Shown here one piece after another: positions 4,235 to 41,067 of a DNA stretch of 43,351 nt. The notes under the pieces were generated by a model. It did not search any database. It was not told the origin of the DNA and saw only the letters and a list, made by a program, of their open reading frames with translations. The position numbers and the translations under genes are program-made. Origin of the DNA: a bacterium (lineage in GTDB: Bacteria > Patescibacteriota > Saccharimonadia > CAILAD01 > BJGX01); assembly GCA_037132395.1 (NCBI GenBank), contig JBAXPC010000002.1:1-43351 (forward strand). The letters are read 5' to 3'. Position 1 is the first letter of the stretch. Each line of letters begins with the position of its first letter.

Positions 4235-5473
4235 ATGAATAACAAATCTAAGACTACACCAACTGAAACAACTTCGCCGGCAGATAAATTAATAAAATCC
4301 CGGCTCCACGGTTTTGGGAACATCGCTATCGGCTTTATGCTGGGTCTGGCTGTATTCTGGGCATTTAGCATTTTTTATCGCCCCGCCACCGGCAAAAATC
4401 AGCTCGATACCGCGATGCTTTATAAGGTGCAGTCGATCTTACAGCAAAAGTATGATGGCAATATCGACTACGGTAAGTTCTCGGAAGGTGCCGCCGCCGG
4501 CGCAGTAGCGTCGCTAGGAGACCCCTATACAGTCTTTTTAGATCAGCAAAACAATAAGGAGCTAGCCAACGATCTCAAAGGAGAACTCTCCGGAATCGGA
4601 ATCGAGGTTGGACAGAAAGATGGCAGGCTAACAGTTATTGCTCCTTTTGATGGAACTCCAGCCGCCAAGGCTGGCATCCGGTCAGGGGATATTATTGCCA
4701 CAATCGATGGAGTTGCAACCAGCTCAATAACCCTAGACCAAGCAGTTAATAAAATTAGAGGTGAAAAGGGTACCTCTGTTAAGCTTGGAATAGTCCGCGC
4801 TGGCGAGGCCCCAAAAGAGATAGAAATTACACGTGAGATTATTGATATCCCTAGTGTTTCCTACGAAATGAAGGATGGCTTGGTAGGCTATATCAAAATC
4901 AGACGCTTTGGCGAGGATACCGCTGCGCTGGTAAAGTCGGCCGGCGTTAGCCTAAAAAGCCAAGGTGCCAAGGCAGTTATTATAGATGTCAGAGATAACC
5001 CAGGCGGGTACCTAGATGCGGCCGTTGCTGTAGCATCGGAATTTTCCAATAAAGGGGTTGTAGTCGAAGAACGATCTCGCAACTCTAAGCCCAAAATACA
5101 ATACGCTACCACTGGCGGAACAATGACAAACATCCCAGTAGTGATGCTTATAAATGGCGGTAGCGCATCGGCATCAGAAATCCTAGCCGGAGCACTCAAT
5201 GACAACAACAGAGCTTTATTGGTAGGCGAAAAGACCTACGGTAAAGGGAGTGTCCAAGAAGTAGTCTGTTTGAGCCCAGTGTTTATGAACAGCGACTGCC
5301 CAGGTGCATCACTCAAAGTTACGGTTGCCCGTTGGTTTACACCTGCTGGTATAAATATTAGCAAAGAAGGCATTAAGCCTGAGGTTGAAGTTAAGCTCAC
5401 TGACGAGGATATCAACAACAGCAAAGATCCTCAACTCGAAAAGGCCATCGAGCTCGCTAAGCAAGCAAAATAG
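4235..5473 (+). CDS. ctpA: S41 family C-terminal processing peptidase (N-terminal TM, PDZ domain)
   Basis: PDZ-like segment GIGIEVGQKDGRLTVIAPFDGTPAAKAGIRSGDII. S41 motifs IDVRDNPGG, NGGSASASEI and GEKTYGKGS are present. Confidence 0.88.
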   Translation: MNNKSKTTPTETTSPADKLIKSRLHGFGNIAIGFMLGLAVFWAFSIFYRPATGKNQLDTAMLYKVQSILQQKYDGNIDYGKFSEGAAAGAVASLGDPYTVFLDQQNNKELANDLKGELSGIGIEVGQKDGRLTVIAPFDGTPAAKAGIRSGDIIATIDGVATSSITLDQAVNKIRGEKGTSVKLGIVRAGEAPKEIEITREIIDIPSVSYEMKDGLVGYIKIRRFGEDTAALVKSAGVSLKSQGAKAVIIDVRDNPGGYLDAAVAVASEFSNKGVVVEERSRNSKPKIQYATTGGTMTNIPVVMLINGGSASASEILAGALNDNNRALLVGEKTYGKGSVQEVVCLSPVFMNSDCPGASLKVTVARWFTPAGINISKEGIKPEVEVKLTDEDINNSKDPQLEKAIELAKQAK

Positions 5474-8877: not shown

Positions 8878-9879
8878 ATGCGTTTACGACACTTCTTTTT
8901 CTTTTTAGCCATTGTTCTGATATCGATATTAATAATCGTCCAGTTTGGTCAATTTGGTGACTTCTTGTCTGTCATAGTAAATGTTAATATCTGGCTACTT
9001 CTGGTAGTGGTGTTTTTACGATTCCTCTACTATCTAACCAATACGAAGTACTTTCAGGTATATCTAAAAAGTTTTGGCTACCATTTGGCATTTAAGCCTT
9101 TGTTTAAGGATGTTGTTACCATGAATTTTGCTAATACCGTGTTCCCGACAGGAGGCGTCAGTGGTATAGCCATACTACGTGGACGCCTAAGAAAGCATAA
9201 GATTTCGGCACACACATCAACGGTTGCGCAAGCGTTCTGGATGGGCTTTACTGGGATATCGTTTATAGTATTGCTACTAGCAAGTATGTTATTGCTTTTC
9301 GTATCGACGAGAATAGAGCAAGTTAGCTTTAGGCTAATACTAGCCGTCTTGCTTTTTATGCTAGTTGGCTCAATAGTCACCATGGCTTTACTGCTCAACA
9401 GGCGAGTTGCCGAACGAGCAGTCTATCTCCTAACAAGACCAATAAACTTTATTTTGAGACGTTTTGGTCGAGATTCTCTTGGCAAGCAGCAGCTAGAAGG
9501 TCTTTTTGATAAATTTTACGAGACACTACTAGATTTTAAGAGTGATTGGCGTAAGCTGGTAGGGCCTTTTTCGTGGTGTTTTATAACATTAGTTATTGAT
9601 ATAGCTTCGCTTTACATGGTATTTGTAGCTTTTGGTGTTTACCCTAACCCCGGCGTCGTTGCAGCAGCTTTTTTGGTTGCAATGGTAGTGTCTTTGGCAT
9701 CAGTCGTAACTTCTGGAATCGGTGTTTTTGAAATCGGTATGGTTAGTGTGCTGGTTGGGCTGGGACTGGCATTTGATATTAGTTTTTCGGCCGCAATTGT
9801 ATATCGCATTATCGCACTATGGCTATTCTTGCCAGTAGGCTTATATTTTTACAAGAAAGCAATGTTCGATGAAAAATGA
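8878..9879 (+). CDS. Flippase-like / lysyl-phosphatidylglycerol-synthase TM-region family membrane protein
   Basis: About 8 TM helices. The segment NFANTVFPTGGVSGIAILRGRL resembles the conserved loop of this family. TACAAT lies 6 nt before the ATG. Confidence 0.55.
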   Translation: MRLRHFFFFLAIVLISILIIVQFGQFGDFLSVIVNVNIWLLLVVVFLRFLYYLTNTKYFQVYLKSFGYHLAFKPLFKDVVTMNFANTVFPTGGVSGIAILRGRLRKHKISAHTSTVAQAFWMGFTGISFIVLLLASMLLLFVSTRIEQVSFRLILAVLLFMLVGSIVTMALLLNRRVAERAVYLLTRPINFILRRFGRDSLGKQQLEGLFDKFYETLLDFKSDWRKLVGPFSWCFITLVIDIASLYMVFVAFGVYPNPGVVAAAFLVAMVVSLASVVTSGIGVFEIGMVSVLVGLGLAFDISFSAAIVYRIIALWLFLPVGLYFYKKAMFDEK

Positions 9880-22801: not shown

Positions 22802-24223
22802 ATGAACAAAGCTATTAGAGTACGATTTGCCCCAAGTCCGACAGGTTTCTTGCACGTAGGTGGGGTTCGAACTGCCTTATTTAATTATCTTTTCGCTAAG
22901 GCTAGTGGCGGCAAATTCATATTGCGCCTTGAGGATACCGATAGGGAGCGATTTGTAGAAGAAGGAGTCGATCAGATTATCAGCTCGCTCGATTGGCTAG
23001 GCCTGCACCCAGACGAAGGTGTTTGGTTTGAGGAGCTGGCAGGCGAGCACGGCCCCTACGTGCAGTCCAAGAGGCTAAATCATTATCGCCAGTATGCTAA
23101 CGATATGATCAAATCTGGCCAGGCCTACTACTCCAGGACTTCACCTGAGCAATTAGAGGCTTTAAAAAATGAAGCAATGCTAGCTAAGCAGCCTTTTGTT
23201 TATAACCACTCAATGGAGCCAGCATCCGACAACGATACCGATACCGAAGGGCTACCTATCAGGCTCAAAGTGCCTACCGGAATCACCAAATGGACAGACG
23301 AGGTAAGGGGAAGTTTCGATACCAAAAATGAGCTTATCGATGACTTTATTATTATTAAGGCCGATGGCTACCCAACGTACAATTTCGCTAACGTCATTGA
23401 TGATTATCTTATGAAAATATCCCATGTTATTCGTGGCGACGAGTTTATCAGTAGTACAGCTAAGCATGCCTTGCTTTACGATATGTTGGGCTTTGGCAGA
23501 CCTGCGTGGGTACATTTGCCGCCAATTCTCGGCCCTGACGGAACCAAAAAACTCAGCAAGCGCGATGGCGATGTCAACGTGCTCGATTATAAAGCCAAGG
23601 GCTACCTGCCAGAGGCACTGCTCAACTTTTTATCACAACTGGGCTGGAACGACGGCACTACTCAGGAGATTTTTAGCCCCGAGGAGCTGATAGCTAAGTT
23701 TAGAGTTGACCGTATCCAGAAAAGTCCAGCCGTTTTTGATGCCCAGAGATTAGATTGGATGAATGGCGAATACCTCCGCAATAAGCTCTCTGAGGATGAG
23801 TTTATAGAGCATGTTAAGCCATATCTCCCAGAAACCTGGCTAGAGGATCAGAATTATTTCAAGACCGTTCTGAGGCTCGACCGTGACCGCATAAAAAGGC
23901 TTGATGAAGCAAAATACATTATGGAAATATTTTTTGAGACTCCAGACGTCGACAAGCAGTTACTTTATAAAAAAGACGATACAAGTGCTGTGACTGCCTG
24001 GATAAACAACACAATCACATCCCTCGAGGGCAATCAGTTTACTCACGATAGTATCGAAAAAACCCTTCGCGAGCTAGCTGGAGAGATGAACGTTGGAGCT
24101 GGCCAGTATTTTTACGTTCTGCGGGTAGCACTGACCGGCCGTACAGAAGCACCTGGACTATTTGATATATTTGCTACTCTAGGCCATGATGAGTCGCTAA
24201 AAAGACTCAAAGCTACAATATAG
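22802..24223 (+). CDS. gltX: Glutamate--tRNA ligase
   Basis: RFAPSPTGFLHVGG (HIGH) and KLSKR (KMSKS) motifs. TGGTATAAT lies 7 nt before the ATG. Confidence 0.94.
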   Translation: MNKAIRVRFAPSPTGFLHVGGVRTALFNYLFAKASGGKFILRLEDTDRERFVEEGVDQIISSLDWLGLHPDEGVWFEELAGEHGPYVQSKRLNHYRQYANDMIKSGQAYYSRTSPEQLEALKNEAMLAKQPFVYNHSMEPASDNDTDTEGLPIRLKVPTGITKWTDEVRGSFDTKNELIDDFIIIKADGYPTYNFANVIDDYLMKISHVIRGDEFISSTAKHALLYDMLGFGRPAWVHLPPILGPDGTKKLSKRDGDVNVLDYKAKGYLPEALLNFLSQLGWNDGTTQEIFSPEELIAKFRVDRIQKSPAVFDAQRLDWMNGEYLRNKLSEDEFIEHVKPYLPETWLEDQNYFKTVLRLDRDRIKRLDEAKYIMEIFFETPDVDKQLLYKKDDTSAVTAWINNTITSLEGNQFTHDSIEKTLRELAGEMNVGAGQYFYVLRVALTGRTEAPGLFDIFATLGHDESLKRLKATI

Positions 24224-30488: not shown

Positions 30489-30719
30489 GTGTTGGAGCCG
30501 AATATGATTAGCCAGGCGGCACGCTATATCTACCCTGGATTAGTTTTGCCAGTCGTGCCTTATTGCGCTAGCGAAGGGCTTGATCCGAGTCTAGTGCCAC
30601 ACCAACTCGGTGCCATAGGCTTCGATTTTGTCAAAATCTTCCAGTTCGAAATCGAGCCAGGGTTTTGCTTCGAACACGTCTTGTCCTACGTAGAAAATCA
30701 CACTGGGGAGAAGAGATAA
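30489..30719 (+). CDS. Hypothetical protein, possibly the 5' half of a frameshifted gene
   Basis: GGAGGT lies 6 nt before GTG 30489. It overlaps the next ORF by 55 nt in a different frame. Confidence 0.4.
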   Translation: MLEPNMISQAARYIYPGLVLPVVPYCASEGLDPSLVPHQLGAIGFDFVKIFQFEIEPGFCFEHVLSYVENHTGEKR

Positions 30720-30889
30720 GTATCGATGACCTGACTAACTCACCCGAGCTTGCAAGCATCAAAGAGCTGGTTGAGACCAACAGATTCGTAATAACATCAT
30801 GGGGGGCATTGATACCCCTCTTTGAGGACGATATAGCCGTCCCATACCCAAATACTGTCGAGCTACCGCTCGATATGCGCCTAGATTAA
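30665..30889 (+). CDS. Hypothetical protein, possibly the 3' half of a frameshifted gene
   Basis: Frame -1 relative to 30489..30719. It has no Shine-Dalgarno of its own, and a terminator follows directly. Confidence 0.35.
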   Translation: MLRTRLVLRRKSHWGEEISIDDLTNSPELASIKELVETNRFVITSWGALIPLFEDDIAVPYPNTVELPLDMRLD

Positions 30890-30900
30890 TATTATTTACT

Positions 30901-30931
30901 TCGCTCTTATCTGTATTAAGGGCGATTTTTT
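30901..30931 (+). terminator. Rho-independent terminator
   Basis: TCGCTCTTA pairs with TAAGGGCGA (one G-U pair), 7-nt loop, then TTTTTT. Confidence 0.65.
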
Positions 30932-30951: not shown

Positions 30952-31275
30952 CTACTTATTTTTGAGTGCTTTTTTTTGGAGTCGTTTTTGGGCTGCAATG
31001 CGCACCAGAATATTGAGGCTGGCAGCAATAATACCAACGCCTATCAGCACATAAAATATCGTAAATAGCTTGGTGCCTGGTGTGGTGGGGTGAATATCGC
31101 CGTAACCCACGGTGGTAATAGTGATCACCGAAAAATAAACCGCGTCTATCCAGCTCAAGTGCAGGAACCTATGATAAAAGACTGATCCAGTAGCAATAAC
31201 AGATAAGGCTGTCAGCACCACCCACTTGAAGTGTAGGGCTGTATCAACTGCTTCAGACGATTTGTGTCTAGTCAT
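30952..31275 (-). CDS. Minimal two-TM potassium channel (KcsA-like pore, no RCK or ligand domain)
   Basis: Selectivity filter TTVGYGD is flanked by two TM helices. ATG 31275 lies 7 nt after TATAAT (31288-31283, minus strand). There is an alternative GTG at 31293. Confidence 0.85.
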   Translation of the reverse strand: MTRHKSSEAVDTALHFKWVVLTALSVIATGSVFYHRFLHLSWIDAVYFSVITITTVGYGDIHPTTPGTKLFTIFYVLIGVGIIAASLNILVRIAAQKRLQKKALKNK

Positions 31276-31357
31276 GACTATAATTATAACCACTAAGCAA
31301 CTTAAACACCAAATTATTCTTGCTCTATATATTAATTCTTATGCTAAAGTAAATCGT

Positions 31358-32140
31358 ATGAAACCCAAAACGAAACAAGGCAAGAAACTACAGAATTTTA
31401 ATATAATAATGGGCTGCATACACTTAGTCCAAGCTACAGTGATGCTATTTATCTTAAATTACAGCCTAAAAATACCTATTATCACTAGGTTTTTTGATCA
31501 GTCTCCCAACGGCAGCTTTACTGTATCTACTAAAGTTCTGATAGATGTCCCAATAGCAGTTGTAGCACCAGTATTCTTACTTATTTCGGCTCTTTTCCAT
31601 TTCATCATCTCGTCACCTTTTTATGTACGTCGCTATGAGGCGAATATAAAAAAGGGCTATAACCCTATGCGCTGGATCGAATATTCATTAAGTAGCTCAG
31701 TTATGTTGGTCGCGCTACTTATGATGGGTGGTATCAATGAACTCTCAAGTGTAGTGTTTGTTTTTACTCTAAACTTTTTGATGAACATGTGGGGGCTAGA
31801 GATGGAGCGTTACAACCAGCTCACCGAAAAGATCAAGTGGTTTCCGTACAACATGGGCGTAATCGCAGGTATAGTACCATGGATTATCGGTGGCCTATAC
31901 TTCTGGGTCAGCACCACCAATGTCGCCGACAGTATCCCTTGGTATGCCAAGCTAGGGTTCTTGATCACGTTCCTATTCTTCAATAGCTTCGCTATCAATA
32001 TGGTTCTTCAGTATCTCAAGGTAGGCCGCTGGAAGAATTACGTACATGGCGAACGCGCCTATATATGGCTTAGCCTGATAGCCAAAAGCTCACTAGCCTG
32101 GATTCTTGTGCTAGGAACCCTAAATATAGCAGCAAAATAG
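31358..32140 (+). CDS. Heliorhodopsin (7-TM retinal protein)
   Basis: Collinear with HeR-48C12 as recalled: KLQNFN, GCIHLVQ (His22), ISALFHFIIS (His81), RWIEYSLSSSVM (Glu108), IAGIVPWI, FFNSFA, GERAYIWLSLIAKSSLAW (Lys243). The ORF is open from 31226, but ATG 31358 fits the family N-terminus. Confidence 0.92.
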   Translation: MKPKTKQGKKLQNFNIIMGCIHLVQATVMLFILNYSLKIPIITRFFDQSPNGSFTVSTKVLIDVPIAVVAPVFLLISALFHFIISSPFYVRRYEANIKKGYNPMRWIEYSLSSSVMLVALLMMGGINELSSVVFVFTLNFLMNMWGLEMERYNQLTEKIKWFPYNMGVIAGIVPWIIGGLYFWVSTTNVADSIPWYAKLGFLITFLFFNSFAINMVLQYLKVGRWKNYVHGERAYIWLSLIAKSSLAWILVLGTLNIAAK

Positions 32141-32281: not shown

Positions 32282-32728
32282 CTACTTTAGTGTGCCGATT
32301 TGGTAGCTAGCAAGAATACTATCGGCTCGACTAGAATGTCCGCTTTTCCGGCCACCCTTAGTATTGTAGGCGCTAGTAGCATCCTTACCACAATACATTA
32401 GTATTAGGTCAGCTCCGCCAGGGTGCTGATCGATGTAGGCTGTGATGTCGTAGATGTTAGAATTAATAATTAGCCAGCAATCCTTGTAAGATTTGTGCCC
32501 GGCTACTTCAGCTATTGAGTATGATTTAGGGCCTGAGCCTTGCGTTGTGGGGGATGTTTGATCATTAGAGGTAGCGCCGCCGGGCTCGCCAGTATTAGTA
32601 CCAGAGCCAGTGTTAATTCCAGCGGGCGTTGCAGATTCCTTGACTTGTTTATCAATAAAACCCCATATAAACATTGTGCCCATGGTTAGTACAAACAGCA
32701 TAAACACAATAGCAACTAGTTTTTTCAT
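32282..32728 (-). CDS. Membrane-anchored cytochrome b5-like heme-binding domain protein
   Basis: N-terminal TM, a Gly/Thr/Ser-rich linker, then HKSYKDCWLIINSNIYDITAYIDQHPGGADLILMYCGKDATSAYN. ATGA overlap with the upstream gene. Confidence 0.85.
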   Translation of the reverse strand: MKKLVAIVFMLFVLTMGTMFIWGFIDKQVKESATPAGINTGSGTNTGEPGGATSNDQTSPTTQGSGPKSYSIAEVAGHKSYKDCWLIINSNIYDITAYIDQHPGGADLILMYCGKDATSAYNTKGGRKSGHSSRADSILASYQIGTLK

Positions 32729-34038
32729 GCTAGGTAAAACTCCTCGGTGTTAATGTTTTTATTTATTACGCCCATGGCTTTTAGCTGTTCTTTAAGGTTG
32801 GTCATCATCAATTGAGGTCCGCAGATCATGAAACTTGCGCCTGTAAGATCGGAGCTAGTCTTAAAGATATAATCAGCCGTCAAGAAGCCATTGGTGTTAG
32901 CTGTAAACGGGATGATAGTTAGGTTCGTTTTGAATCTGGCTATTTGCTTGAGTTTGGGCAAGTAGGCTGCTTCTTGGGCGGTTTTTGTAGAGTAATACAG
33001 GTCGACCCTCTGGCTATCGTCTAGCGCTTCAGCCATCGCTACGAAGGGAGTTATGCCTATCCCACCAGCAACCCAAATCTGACGACGGTTCAATATTACT
33101 TTATTAGAGAATGTACCATAGGGGCCATCAACCTTGATTTTGAGACCGACCTTAGCCTCGGCCATAAGCTTTGTGTAGTCGCCTAATGATTTGATACCAA
33201 ATTTTATAGCTGGCTCACCAGTATCGGTGCTTGCACCGCTCATACTAAAGGGGTGTGACTGTCCGAGAACTCCATCGGCTTCAGCCTTTATAAAAGCAAA
33301 CTGGCCTGGTAAATACGCCATAGGCTTGCCAATTGGAGTCAGCTTTAACTCATAAATATCACCAAAACTCGTTACGCTAGCTAGGCTGTACTGATAGTAT
33401 TTCGAAAAGTTACCGTGAAAAATCGAACGGTAAACATATACAACTCCTGCCAAGATTATCAATCCAAAAATATAGGCTTGCAGAGCTAACAGCCCAGAGT
33501 TAATACCTAGGTCGCTTGAGCCTACAAATATGGCGTGTATGCCACCAAAGAACAATAAGAGACCCAGTAGTCGTTGGGCTAATACAAATCTTTCGTATTT
33601 GACGTTCATATAAAGTGTGACCAGCATCAAGGCCGACATACTAAATAGAGTTATCGAGCCTAGGGCAGAAAATGGCGAGGCAAAACTTGGTTTCAAAAAT
33701 TCAAAAGCTGCCATCGGTGACGAAAGAAAGTACCGATACGCTATTGCTACCGGATGAATTAGCAGTAAAATATAGGCTAACGAACCTATGATATGGTGCG
33801 CTCGGTAAGTATTGTCGAGGCCCATAAAGAGCTTGTTGTATATCTTAAGACGGGCACTCAAAATAACATTCCAGGCAAATAAAGACATTCCAGCCAGGCC
33901 GGCTAATCTACCGATGTTATCAAATATTAGCTTTGGTGTATTCCATTGTGATGGCATCGCAGCTAGCCACAAAGCAACGGGGATAATTGCGACCAAAATT
34001 GTTATAAGCCAGCCAAGGTTTGTGTATCGATTGCGCAT
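32725..34038 (-). CDS. Ferric-reductase/NOX-like flavocytochrome (6-TM heme domain plus FAD- and NAD(P)H-binding domains)
   Basis: TM His pair in HHIIGSLAYILLLIH, FAD motif HPFSMSG and NAD(P)H motif GGIGITPF. Confidence 0.85.
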   Translation of the reverse strand: MRNRYTNLGWLITILVAIIPVALWLAAMPSQWNTPKLIFDNIGRLAGLAGMSLFAWNVILSARLKIYNKLFMGLDNTYRAHHIIGSLAYILLLIHPVAIAYRYFLSSPMAAFEFLKPSFASPFSALGSITLFSMSALMLVTLYMNVKYERFVLAQRLLGLLLFFGGIHAIFVGSSDLGINSGLLALQAYIFGLIILAGVVYVYRSIFHGNFSKYYQYSLASVTSFGDIYELKLTPIGKPMAYLPGQFAFIKAEADGVLGQSHPFSMSGASTDTGEPAIKFGIKSLGDYTKLMAEAKVGLKIKVDGPYGTFSNKVILNRRQIWVAGGIGITPFVAMAEALDDSQRVDLYYSTKTAQEAAYLPKLKQIARFKTNLTIIPFTANTNGFLTADYIFKTSSDLTGASFMICGPQLMMTNLKEQLKAMGVINKNINTEEFYLA

Positions 34039-34212: not shown

Positions 34213-34383
34213 AATGTTAGAAAGATTACGAAACTTTTACAATAAGAACCGCATATCTGGTCAAAAGGTCAATGCCGAGCAGAATATCAGCAAGGCCAGC
34301 CGCGACAAAGAAACTGAAGAAACCTCGGAAGAAGTTTATAGCACCAAACAGTCCGAAGAAGATAGAAAAAAACCTCAGCACTA
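34213..34383 (+). CDS. Small, highly charged hypothetical protein (56 aa, below the ORF-track cutoff)
   Basis: AAGGAG lies 6 nt before the ATG. Translation is MLERLRNFYNKNRISGQKVNAEQNISKASRDKETEETSEEVYSTKQSEEDRKKPQH*. Confidence 0.35.
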
Positions 34384-34485
34384 GCAAATGCCCTAAGCGA
34401 GCATTACAATTGACTTCTAAGCATATTTATGCTATTATATAGCTTCCAAAAAATCTTTGGATGTACCTACCATAGAGGTGATAAA

Positions 34486-35633: not shown

Positions 35634-36341
35634 ATGGATATCAATAGGTTCACTGGAGATGAATCAAATGGCCTCGCACTAGCTTCTATTTTGCTAAGAG
35701 CCGAGGAAGATGCCGCCAAGAATAAAGAATTACAAGAAGAAATAGCGGATCTACAAAAAAGACTTGATCTTGATGCATTCACTGGGCTGCTTAATAAGCA
35801 GGCGTTTAACCGTGAGCTGGGTAGAAGAGTAGATATCAGCATCACAACTGGTGAACCTGTGGCGCTGGCCTTTCTAGATATCGACTTTTTTAAGCAAGTT
35901 AATGACACTCTTGGCCATGATATAGGAGACGAGCTAATACTAGCACTTTCAACTAGACTTAGAGATGGCGATGCATACGTAATCGGACCTACCGTCCTCC
36001 ATAGCACTGACCCAGCAGGCTCCAGGCAAGGAAGGCTTGGCGGCGATGAATTTGGAGTTCTCGCATCGCTTACGCAGAGAGACCAGGATAGAGATACCAA
36101 CAACACCCCGCTGTCACCCGAGCAAAGATTTGAGGGATTTAAATCTCATATCTTGAAGCTGTGCCAAGAGTTTATAGGAGCTCATCCTGAGATTAAAAAG
36201 ATGGTACCAGGTTTTGATATAAGCGTTGGTTTTGCTAGCTCCACGGGCATCGAGGGCACAGCTACATCCGAAGCTCTAGTCAGAGCTGCAGATCAAGATA
36301 TGTACAAAGCAAAAGGACGCAACAAAGCCAACCCCAGTTAG
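35634..36341 (+). CDS. Stand-alone GGDEF-domain protein (putative diguanylate cyclase) with no sensor domain
   Basis: Stalk helix plus DAFTGLLNKQAF, FLDIDFFKQVND and RLGGDEFGVL. No RxxD I-site lies 5 residues upstream of GGDEF. There are insertions on both sides of the GGDEF loop. Confidence 0.85.
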   Translation: MDINRFTGDESNGLALASILLRAEEDAAKNKELQEEIADLQKRLDLDAFTGLLNKQAFNRELGRRVDISITTGEPVALAFLDIDFFKQVNDTLGHDIGDELILALSTRLRDGDAYVIGPTVLHSTDPAGSRQGRLGGDEFGVLASLTQRDQDRDTNNTPLSPEQRFEGFKSHILKLCQEFIGAHPEIKKMVPGFDISVGFASSTGIEGTATSEALVRAADQDMYKAKGRNKANPS

Positions 36342-39108: not shown

Positions 39109-41067
39109 ATGGCGTTCCATTTACTACCCAGACTCAAAATTTCCTCAAAGGTATTGGTGTTTTTCTTATTCGTTTCATTATTGCCACTACTGGTAGTGAG
39201 TGTTGTTCTGGTGGGTCGAGGGCGAGCCTTGCTGCTAGACGCCGCCATAACCAAGCAAAAGGTGGTAGCCACTAGCACCGCCGATAAGGTCAATATTTTT
39301 CTTGATGACCGTATCAGAGCACTGGTATTGGAGTCGAAGTTACTGGCCCTAGCTAAATCCGAGCCTGCACTCACTAGCAAAGATTTCGCAGCACTCATTA
39401 AACAAGATAAAAGTATTCAGGAAGTTATACTTTTGGATCCGAAAGGCGTGCAGGTAGTAAAGGTCGATGCCAACGGCTCAGATTTTAGTACTCCCGACCG
39501 CTCATCGTCTGATTCGTTTAAAGCCGTCGGTTTTTTGGAGGGGAGGTATTTTGTAAGCTCCGTTAGCTATGGTCAAAATAACGAACCCTCTATCACCATA
39601 GCCGTACCGATATTGCCTACCAACCTCAGCCAAGCTCAAGACGAAACTACTCGTTCGGCGTCCAGCCCCAAAATAACTTCCGATGTTTTTCTTGGTGTTA
39701 TAGTAGTCAAATACAATATCGGCGATCTGTGGCAGTCGGTGCTCTCGACAACTATCGGCAAAGGTGGCTATGCCTATGTGGTCGATAGCCTTGGCAACCT
39801 CGTGGCGCATCCCGATAGCAACTATTTGGCAAAGAACCAAAAAATAGCCGATGTTGAAGCCGTCAAAAACTATATCAATGACAATTTCGAAACCAAAATT
39901 ACCACCTCTGAGCAGGGTGTAAGCGTCGTTAGTACCCCTACCAAACTATCTAGCAATAGCTGGGCAGTAATAGTTCAGGAGCCAGTTTCGAGTGTTTATT
40001 CGGGTATCAACTCTTTTATTGAGCTCTCGGTAATTATTATTGTATCCTCGGCGCTGTTTGCAATCGTCCTTAGTTTGATATTCCGCAAACAGCTCCTCGA
40101 CCCCATTAAGCAGCTGCTTATCGGTACCAAAAAGATCTCCGAAGGTGACTATAGTTATACCGTTAAGGTCAAATCTAACGACGAGCTGCGATATTTGGCC
40201 GAAACCTTCAATAGTATGTCGCAAAATATCAATAAGCTCGTTGGCGATCTGAAAATCAAAAACGCCGACCTCGACAAAGCAACCAACCAGCTCAGCGAGG
40301 CCAATGAAAAACTTCAGCAAGCCGATACCACCAAGGACGAGTTTATATCGATGGCCTCGCATCAGCTGGGCACTCCACTGGCCACCATCGAGGGCTACCT
40401 GAGTATGGTCAACCAAGGTTACTACGGTCCGCTCAACGAAAAGCTGGCCACGACAGTCAATAAGGCCCTCGGCCGCACCAATGTCATGAAAGGCTTACTG
40501 GCCGACTTTTTAGATGTCAGCCGCATGACGGCCAATAAGTTTTATCTCGACATCGAGCCAACTGATTTTAATAAAATCATCGCCGAAGAGGTCGGTGCCC
40601 TAAAAGCCTCGGCTGCCGAAGCCAAGGTCGAGCTAGCTTACCACGCCCCAGAGCAGGTACCACCGCTAATGAATATCGACGAGCATAAAACCCGCCAGGC
40701 CGTAATGAACCTCATCACCAACGCCATCAATTACACCAAGGGCGGTAAGGTCGATGTCTTTTTGCGCTACGATAGTGTTAATGCCCAGTACACCGTGGTC
40801 GATAACGGCATCGGCGTGCCAGACGAACAAAAGTCGAAGCTATTTAAAAAGTTTTATCGTGCCGATAATGCCAAAGAGACCCTACCAACTGGCACGGGCT
40901 TAGGTCTATACCTAGTTAAGCGCGTCGTTGAAGACCAGGGCGGCAAAATTATCTTCCATAGCGAAGTCGGCAAGGGCTCGACCTTCGGCTTTGTACTGCC
41001 TCTTGATACTAAGCTGCCGCTTGGGCAGTATCTGGCGCCGTCCAATAGTGCCGACGAGTCGGCTTGA
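39109..41067 (+). CDS. Sensor histidine kinase (extracytoplasmic Cache-like domain, HAMP, HisKA, HATPase_c)
   Basis: Two TM segments flank a roughly 270-aa loop. H-box FISMASHQLGTPLATIEGY, N-box NLITNAINYT, and G-boxes DNGIGVP and GTGLGLYLVKRVV. Confidence 0.9.
   Translation: MAFHLLPRLKISSKVLVFFLFVSLLPLLVVSVVLVGRGRALLLDAAITKQKVVATSTADKVNIFLDDRIRALVLESKLLALAKSEPALTSKDFAALIKQDKSIQEVILLDPKGVQVVKVDANGSDFSTPDRSSSDSFKAVGFLEGRYFVSSVSYGQNNEPSITIAVPILPTNLSQAQDETTRSASSPKITSDVFLGVIVVKYNIGDLWQSVLSTTIGKGGYAYVVDSLGNLVAHPDSNYLAKNQKIADVEAVKNYINDNFETKITTSEQGVSVVSTPTKLSSNSWAVIVQEPVSSVYSGINSFIELSVIIIVSSALFAIVLSLIFRKQLLDPIKQLLIGTKKISEGDYSYTVKVKSNDELRYLAETFNSMSQNINKLVGDLKIKNADLDKATNQLSEANEKLQQADTTKDEFISMASHQLGTPLATIEGYLSMVNQGYYGPLNEKLATTVNKALGRTNVMKGLLADFLDVSRMTANKFYLDIEPTDFNKIIAEEVGALKASAAEAKVELAYHAPEQVPPLMNIDEHKTRQAVMNLITNAINYTKGGKVDVFLRYDSVNAQYTVVDNGIGVPDEQKSKLFKKFYRADNAKETLPTGTGLGLYLVKRVVEDQGGKIIFHSEVGKGSTFGFVLPLDTKLPLGQYLAPSNSADESA

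Follow-up and report, generated by a model that had tools for sequence, protein, structure and literature searches.

A minimal potassium channel gene head-to-head with a heliorhodopsin gene: a neighbourhood restricted to one clade of probable freshwater Saccharibacteria

Introduction

The roles of heliorhodopsins are largely open, and in the few cases with a demonstrated function, they regulate the products of adjacent genes in response to light, the partners being the ABC transporter OmrDE (in the OcHeR-OmrDE system), glutamine synthetase, and photolyase (PMC11109279 and references therein). Among the freshwater Saccharimonadia, frequent occurrence of heliorhodopsins has been described (PMC9166423). 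Here we analyze a stretch of 43,351 nucleotides (nt) from a probable member of this group (contig JBAXPC010000002.1 of the NCBI GenBank assembly GCA_037132395.1, positions 1 to 43,351 of the forward strand; hereafter, the window), in which a heliorhodopsin gene and the gene for a potassium channel of only 107 amino acids (aa) are oriented away from each other, with their start codons separated by 82 base pairs (bp).

As in the described systems, the heliorhodopsin of the window adjoins a gene whose product could potentially be modulated by light, and one of the known partners is likewise a membrane transporter. However, the known partners are co-transcribed with their heliorhodopsins, while the genes in question are divergent and have separate putative promoters. 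The ten classes of heliorhodopsin neighbours distinguished in PMC11109279 contain neither a potassium channel nor any other ion channel. A first-pass annotation of the window, made from its letters alone, took such a pairing to be undescribed; in agreement with this, no description of a heliorhodopsin-potassium channel pairing was found in the literature searched, the coverage of which was incomplete.

Light-controlled potassium conductance is represented by two-component systems, both natural (the rhodopsin-guanylyl cyclase and the potassium channel gated by cyclic guanosine monophosphate in zoosporic fungi) and engineered (silencers combining a cyclase with SthK), and by the kalium channelrhodopsins, which are single proteins. 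The former depend on a cyclic-nucleotide messenger that acts on a channel possessing a nucleotide-binding domain; in the latter, the pore is formed by the rhodopsin. Unlike the rhodopsin-cyclase systems, the gene pair described here includes no cyclase and no ligand domain.

As to the channel itself, its closest counterparts are NaK of Bacillus cereus, the potassium-selective NaK mutant NaK2K, the MthK pore, KcsA, and the Kcv-type channels, which it resembles in length (approximately 100–110 aa) and in the succession of N-terminal, outer, pore, and inner helices with a selectivity filter. It has no cytoplasmic gating domain, and is a minimal two-transmembrane channel similar to NaK and the MthK pore. 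However, the filter of NaK is TVGDGN, while the filter here is natively TVGYGD; MthK possesses an RCK ring and KcsA a pH-sensing C-terminal bundle, and the channel here has neither. As to the heliorhodopsin, it shares with 48C12 and with the freshwater actinobacterial proteins the full-length PF18761 domain, the lysine of the SxxxK motif, the glutamate counterion, and the histidines; unlike these, it originates from a probable Saccharibacteria epibiont and belongs to a small clade apart from the bulk of the Saccharibacteria heliorhodopsins.

The comparisons below support the view that each of the two genes adds a new member to a well-known family and that their pairing is a clade-restricted, inherited neighbourhood. 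On balance we favour, with modest confidence, an explanation in which an autonomous housekeeping potassium pore and an independent light sensor are adjacent through inheritance within one clade.

Loci and Organisms Compared

The loci and contigs of relatives that were compared with the window are labelled L001 to L185. A heliorhodopsin-anchored scan, with one genome per species, found 80 loci, and a channel-anchored scan of metagenomes also returned 80; a further set, L161, L184, L162/L163, L171–L173, L165–L167, L185, and L168–L170, was obtained by looking up long contigs. The clade in which the channel is linked to heliorhodopsin is probably one of freshwater Saccharibacteria. The window encodes the housekeeping proteins release factor, FtsEX, CTP synthase, MreB, GltX, and ribonucleotide reductase; L001 (metagenome-assembled genome ELA453), of the same species, is approximately 94% identical in DNA sequence to a part of it; GCA_037129115.1, a relative with shared synteny, bears the label Candidatus Saccharibacteria, and several of the related contigs originate from lake metagenomes.

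The Two Proteins

The channel gene occupies positions 30952–31275 of the minus strand (ATG at 31275, read as cat at 31273–31275; stop at 30952). An alternative GTG start at 31293, resulting in a protein of 113 aa, is unlikely, as homologues begin at the ATG and the TATAAT hexamer discussed below falls within the extension. The protein matches Pfam family PF07885 (Ion_trans_2; E value 7.9e-22; 77.4 bits, with the cut-off at 22.5), and the one other model to pass its cut-off, the related Ion_trans, covers the same stretch; the Pfam scan detected no RCK, CNBD, or voltage-sensor domain, and a match to 7TMR-DISM_7TM was below cut-off. In the AlphaFold2 model, built on 40 homologues (predicted local distance difference test score 88.1), helices span residues 6–37 (N-terminal/outer), 42–55 (pore), and 66–106 (inner), and the pore fold accounts for the entire 107-aa chain. 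The first-pass annotation had described a minimal two-transmembrane TVGYGD channel devoid of gating and ligand domains, and both the Pfam scan and the model confirm this description. The filter, TTVGYGD, lies at residues 54–60, with T55, G57, Y58, G59, and D60 invariant in 40 homologues. The closest solved relative is NaK2K (3ouf; 1.5e-16; approximately 50% identity across the pore), followed by the MthK pore, and a Foldseek comparison aligned the model with NaK structures 2ahy and 2q67 at template modelling scores of 0.71–0.74, with a root-mean-square deviation of 1.2 Å over 80 columns. Pore domains of this kind are very common, with 15,029 cluster representatives matched at E<=1e-3, many of them in single-pore proteins of 100–120 aa.

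From these features we infer that the channel forms a tetrameric, potassium-selective pore, similar to NaK and the MthK pore. Hardly any of its mass is cytoplasmic, and the C-terminal tail is basic. Having no sensor domain, it would gate intrinsically, possibly at the filter, at the helix bundle, or by contacts between lipids and the basic tail, and it may serve potassium uptake and the setting of membrane potential in an epibiont with a reduced genome.

The heliorhodopsin gene (positions 31358–32140, plus strand; ATG at 31358–31360) encodes 260 aa matching PF18761 over the entire profile (positions 1–242 of 242; 1.1e-80; 271 bits) and the structure of 48C12 heliorhodopsin (6su3; 2.7e-54). Its retinal lysine (SLIAK) and glutamate counterion (WIEYS) align with SLVAK and WVEYS of 48C12, and both histidines (GCIHL and LFHFI) align as well. 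Judging from the sequence, this is a canonical retinal-binding heliorhodopsin of the sensory type, predicted to have the inverted topology, with the N-terminus inside, and to transport no ions. No fusion of heliorhodopsin with a channel was detected among the 120 best heliorhodopsin matches, all of which contain PF18761 alone, in a search that was not exhaustive.

The heliorhodopsin is 60–67% identical to those of freshwater Actinomycetota and only 40–46% identical to the bulk of the Saccharibacteria heliorhodopsins. In a neighbour-joining tree of L001–L179, constructed without bootstrap support, the channel-linked clade, along with two further heliorhodopsins from Saccharibacteria, is placed among those of freshwater Actinomycetota and away from most Saccharibacteria heliorhodopsins, which is compatible with a transfer between an epibiont and its putative host. 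Actinobacteria are known to host cultivated Saccharibacteria and have also been proposed to do so in freshwater (PMC9296517).

Distribution of the Gene Pair

Heliorhodopsin and channel genes are found head-to-head within 0.8 kilobases (kb) of each other in nine distinct lineages, a number that reflects the contigs that could be fetched and is not an exhaustive census. In four of these (the window/L001, L161, L184, and L165/L083) the two genes are directly adjacent, with a spacer of 64–85 bp. In another four (L082, L162/L171, L084, and L185), a TspO gene lies between them, co-directional with heliorhodopsin, and in the ninth (L168/L003) this place is taken by a different gene, of 131 aa; the latter was considered as a TspO and rejected, as it has only sub-threshold, helix-hairpin-helix-like matches. 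Inside this group, direct adjacency is thus interrupted, by one gene or another, in five of the nine lineages.

Outside this group, the pairing was not seen at the loci examined. In the heliorhodopsin-anchored scan a channel homologue adjoins in only 2 of the 80 loci, L001 and L003. No channel is present beside the heliorhodopsin of L002 (Saccharibacteria; 64% identical), at the approximately 28 loci of freshwater Actinomycetota (60–67%), or at the approximately 49 loci of Saccharibacteria, Dojkabacteria, Chloroflexota, and Archaea (40–47%), and none is found near the heliorhodopsins of L174, L175, and L178 (66–70% identical). A nearby channel is thus lacking both for heliorhodopsins of equal similarity (64–70%) and for approximately 75 that are more distant. 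Likewise, in the channel-anchored scan heliorhodopsin is adjacent in L082, L083, and L084, whose channels are 70–72% identical to the one in the window, and at no locus with a channel of 55% identity or less; channels of other lineages that are 60–66% identical reside in unrelated contexts with no heliorhodopsin nearby. The co-occurrence in related genomes that the first-pass annotation had proposed as a test of its pairing is thus real, but it is limited to nine lineages of one clade, with approximately 78 other heliorhodopsin loci lacking it.

All the channel-linked heliorhodopsins form one clade in the neighbour-joining tree. As the tree is without bootstrap support, this result, and with it a single origin of the head-to-head arrangement, is suggestive. 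The order may have arisen once, in the ancestor of the clade, and have been inherited since. A different case is L081, in which the channel is 94% identical to that of the window and is followed by the same downstream genes, while homology with the window ends at the channel start codon; upstream there is instead a gene of 304 aa, and no heliorhodopsin is found within 3.9 kb in that direction.

The first-pass annotation had gone further, suggesting co-regulation or a physical partnership that would give a light-modulated potassium conductance. In the partnership version, photo-activated heliorhodopsin would bind the channel tetramer, in the membrane or via the short termini, and would change its open probability, and thus potassium conductance and membrane potential. 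We consider this unlikely, though a number of observations speak for it, some of which also weigh against mere inheritance. The channel lacks its own sensor domain, and there is the precedent of heliorhodopsins that bind the products of neighbouring genes and modulate them in response to light, namely glutamine synthetase, photolyase, and OmrDE (PMC11109279). Earlier surveys of heliorhodopsin context took same-strand genes only, either less than 10 bp apart (PMC8612252) or in the same operon (PMC11109279), and would therefore have missed a divergent pair. Of the 10 lineages of the channel clade that were sampled, 9 keep the adjacency, over a range that reaches to approximately 62% identity of the channel and 68% of heliorhodopsin, and no other neighbour of this heliorhodopsin clade, same-strand partners included, is as constant as the channel. 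The most divergent lineage, L168 (channel 62–65% identical), has a different wider context, with genes for FBPase, FtsW, and IleRS, and it still groups heliorhodopsin, the channel, a ferric reductase, and a cytochrome b5, the latter two having moved to the channel side; survival of the pair in such a rearranged context suggests that clustering is selected for, or else that the block moved as a whole.

However, against it are the single apparent origin of the arrangement, with no independent recurrence in the approximately 78 other heliorhodopsin loci, the L081 channel, maintained with no heliorhodopsin in the 3.9 kb upstream, and the genes intervening in five lineages. Heliorhodopsin alleles that differ by 27% are found beside near-identical channels, and are interchangeable in this position. 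In an alignment of channels from inside and outside the clade the architecture is uniform, with no obvious clade-specific feature or insertion that would mark an interface with heliorhodopsin. In the known contacts, basic cytoplasmic loops of heliorhodopsin are paired with cytoplasmic domains of the partner, and the small cytoplasmic mass of the channel, together with its basic tail, argues weakly against the same mode of binding. The stricter formulation, in which the two proteins touch within the membrane and heliorhodopsin thereby directly gates or biases the sensor-less channel, as a natural two-protein, messenger-free, light-modulated potassium conductance, we hold to be rather unlikely. 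If it were true, potassium channels would be a new class of heliorhodopsin effector, the membrane potential of an ultra-small epibiont would be coupled directly to light, and a sensor of 260 aa with a pore of 107 aa might serve as a compact optogenetic silencer. The pairing is an inexpensive and well-defined experimental lead, and not a demonstrated system. Under the explanation of an inherited neighbourhood, the channel would gate autonomously and no coupling between the two proteins would be obligate.

Mosaic Structure of the Locus

The two sides of the locus have different histories. While the channel of the window is 97% identical to that of L161, the respective heliorhodopsins are only 73% identical; the opposite is the case with L082, with 72% for the channel and 83% for heliorhodopsin. 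For L161 and L184, the nearest relatives in terms of the backbone, heliorhodopsin identity to the window is only 73–74%. In L161 and L184, the spacer is nearly identical to that of the window as far as the heliorhodopsin -10 element, beyond which the coding sequences diverge, with one crossover at the heliorhodopsin 5' end. Further along, convergent on heliorhodopsin, is an operon at 32282–34038, part of the variable island, that consists of genes for a membrane-anchored cytochrome b5 (32282–32728, minus strand; Pfam Cyt-b5) and a NOX-like ferric reductase (32725–34038, minus strand; Pfam Ferric_reduct, FAD_binding_8, and NAD_binding_1). The reductase is 85–89% and the cytochrome 76–77% identical to those of L162/L171, with backbone genes at 53–74%, and both are absent locally from L161 and L184, pointing to a recent import into the window.

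The discordant identities of channel and heliorhodopsin are explained by the heliorhodopsin side being a recombining island. The breakpoint in L081, this discordance, the identity of the spacer, and the imported genes together assign the channel and the spacer to a stable backbone, and heliorhodopsin to the position of the first gene of the island. The island that heliorhodopsin opens may be described as one of light and redox functions, variously including TspO, a membrane protein of approximately 220 aa, the NOX-like ferric reductase, and cytochrome b5. Homologous recombination using the channel side as a flank would alone be sufficient to keep heliorhodopsin at its position.

The composition of the island also brings up an explanation in terms of light and redox stress, in which the channel would be linked to an electron-exporting pair rather than to heliorhodopsin directly. 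The NOX-like reductase would move electrons from cytoplasmic NAD(P)H to an outward-facing cytochrome b5, an electrogenic process, for which potassium flow would compensate charge, with heliorhodopsin and TspO acting as light and porphyrin sensors and the genes being co-regulated transcriptionally. Charge compensation by ion channels is an established idea for the NOX enzymes of eukaryotes. The reductase/cytochrome b5 operon is found at 3–5 kb from the pair or nearer in six of the nine lineages; in L168, it directly follows the channel gene on the same strand, with a gap of 78 bp, and all four genes are together in spite of the differing neighbourhood; and TspO is co-directional with heliorhodopsin in four lineages. 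However, L161 and L184 maintain the pair with no reductase or cytochrome b5 nearby, the topology of the reductase pair and its electron acceptor are themselves predicted, no regulatory motif common to these genes was found, and the clustering may reflect merely a recombination hot spot. We therefore regard this proposal as quite doubtful.

Some further features of the island involve neighbours of heliorhodopsin. The gene for the approximately 220-aa membrane protein, with no family match, directly follows heliorhodopsin in four lineages, overlapping it by 4 nt or separated by 10 nt or less (L082, 3057–3716; L162, 4032–4706; L165, 4464–5132; L185, 4038–4703), and is thus a probable operon partner of heliorhodopsin; it is absent from the window. 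The TspO/MBR genes are at positions 4533–4928 in L082 (PF03073; 9.4e-29), 5543–5911 in L162, 5543–5935 in L171, and 5534–5929 in L185, and no mention of TspO was found in the heliorhodopsin context paper PMC8612252. An open reading frame (ORF) of 56 aa in the window (34214–34384, plus strand) has tblastn matches of 78, 71, and 45% in L161, L184, and L168, respectively, and in these three its homologue is located immediately after heliorhodopsin.

Promoters and the Intergenic Region

The divergent intergenic region (31276–31357, 82 bp, unstranded) is 74% A+T and contains a putative promoter for each gene. The channel gene is preceded by the -10 hexamer TATAAT (31283–31288, minus strand; ATTATA on the plus strand), and the heliorhodopsin gene by an extended -10 element, TGcTAAAGT (31342–31350, plus strand; hexamer TAAAGT at 31345–31350), both positioned 7 nt from the ATG, as in the leaderless type. 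Direct reading of the sequence confirmed the coordinates, the 82-bp divergence, and the two hexamers 7 nt before ATG that had been recorded in the first-pass annotation.

Whether such hexamers mean anything in a region of this composition is a fair question, and the adjacency could be meaningless altogether, with the hexamers being chance matches in A+T-rich DNA and the start codons, or even the pairing, being artefacts of assembly or ORF calling. A generic scan for sigma-70 -35 and -10 boxes detected neither hexamer and showed no excess over shuffled sequence, and the enrichment of TANNNT ending 6–8 nt before the start codon among the genes of the window is marginal (10 of 40, 5.4 being expected; P ~0.05). 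However, the scan misses the two hexamers because neither has a -35 hexamer, and for promoters of the extended -10 or leaderless kind it is therefore uninformative. Moreover, a TANNNT 6–7 nt before the channel ATG is kept in the window, L081, L082, L162, L165, and L168, with upstream DNA that is otherwise unrelated, the variants among orthologous loci being TATAAT, TAAAAT, TAATAT, and TACAAT. The heliorhodopsin -10 is likewise orthologous to an element, CTTATG plus TGnTAAAAT/TATAAT, that is kept across the clade. In addition, the arrangement is repeated in independent assemblies from many samples, and both proteins are full-length and canonical. Chance or artefact is thus very improbable, and from the conserved -10 positions in the relatives it is very likely that each gene has its own promoter.

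Under the preferred explanation, these would be two ordinary membrane-protein genes, each expressed from its own promoter of the leaderless type. Perfect TATAAT hexamers at the same distance of 7 nt are also found at 22802, 41982, and 42551 of the window, all without a Shine-Dalgarno sequence, suggesting that leaderless transcription is widespread in this genome, and the leaderless starts look like a genome-wide habit not specific to the pair. For heliorhodopsin, even this feature varies: in L165, L162, L185, and L168 the -10 is followed by a leader of approximately 20 nt with a Shine-Dalgarno sequence, and in the window, L161, and L184 there is none.

The first-pass annotation had also read the spacer as one shared control region for back-to-back promoters. 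This stands for the window in the sense that both -10 elements are indeed within one short A+T-rich spacer, but not for the clade: the spacer of the window cannot be aligned with those of L165, L082, L162, and L168, and with a gene intervening in five of the nine lineages a shared 82-bp control region is not conserved. In those five, heliorhodopsin is preceded by another spacer, which contains a promoter of its own. No operator-like motif shared by the two genes was found in the region, and the search of Rfam gave no match in the spacer or its vicinity, the only RNAs detected in the window being two tRNAs located elsewhere. Lying on opposite strands and behind separate -10 elements, the two genes are not co-transcribed in the same-strand, same-operon sense.

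The single inverted repeat of the region, at 31252–31263/31351–31362, was considered as an operator and rejected as a chance occurrence; such repeats were present in 19 of 300 shuffled sequences, and this one is absent from L161 and L184. The CTTATG motif by the heliorhodopsin -10 (the entire element at 31337–31350 in the window) is kept in L161, L184, L165, L082, L162, L185, and L168, and is retained even within the spacer between TspO and heliorhodopsin and ahead of a leader with a Shine-Dalgarno sequence; it could be a half-site for a regulator or simply a part of the promoter. Many genes of the window have TATAAT-like hexamers before their starts and no Shine-Dalgarno sequence, two further examples being at 8878 and 16619.

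Neighbouring Genes

On its 3' side, the channel gene faces a convergent backbone neighbour, the frameshifted copy of a conserved 133-aa gene (30489–30889, plus strand), with a terminator-like hairpin (30901–30925, plus strand) between the two 3' ends. In the window, this gene is represented by overlapping ORFs of 76 and 74 aa that together match one intact gene in the relatives (L081, 4322–4723; L161, 4080–4481; L184, 3494–3895), and the frameshift near 30695 indicates either a pseudogene or an indel of assembly. In several other lineages, the 3' side of the channel gene is abutted, with a gap of 3 nt or less or an overlap of 1 nt, by the gene for a 346-aa protein with a weak match to DUF998 (L162, 6334–7374; L165, 6339–7379; L185, 6326–7366), which is probably an operon partner of the channel and is absent from the window.

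At a larger distance, 4–9 kb from heliorhodopsin, the window encodes a GGDEF diguanylate cyclase (35634–36341) and a histidine kinase with dCache and HAMP domains (39109–41067); a similar dCache kinase is encoded near the heliorhodopsin of L178, and a GGDEF gene is found near the pair in L185. At the opposite end of the window, the release-factor gene (219–1361), which encodes PCRF and RF-1 domains, has TTG as its listed start codon.

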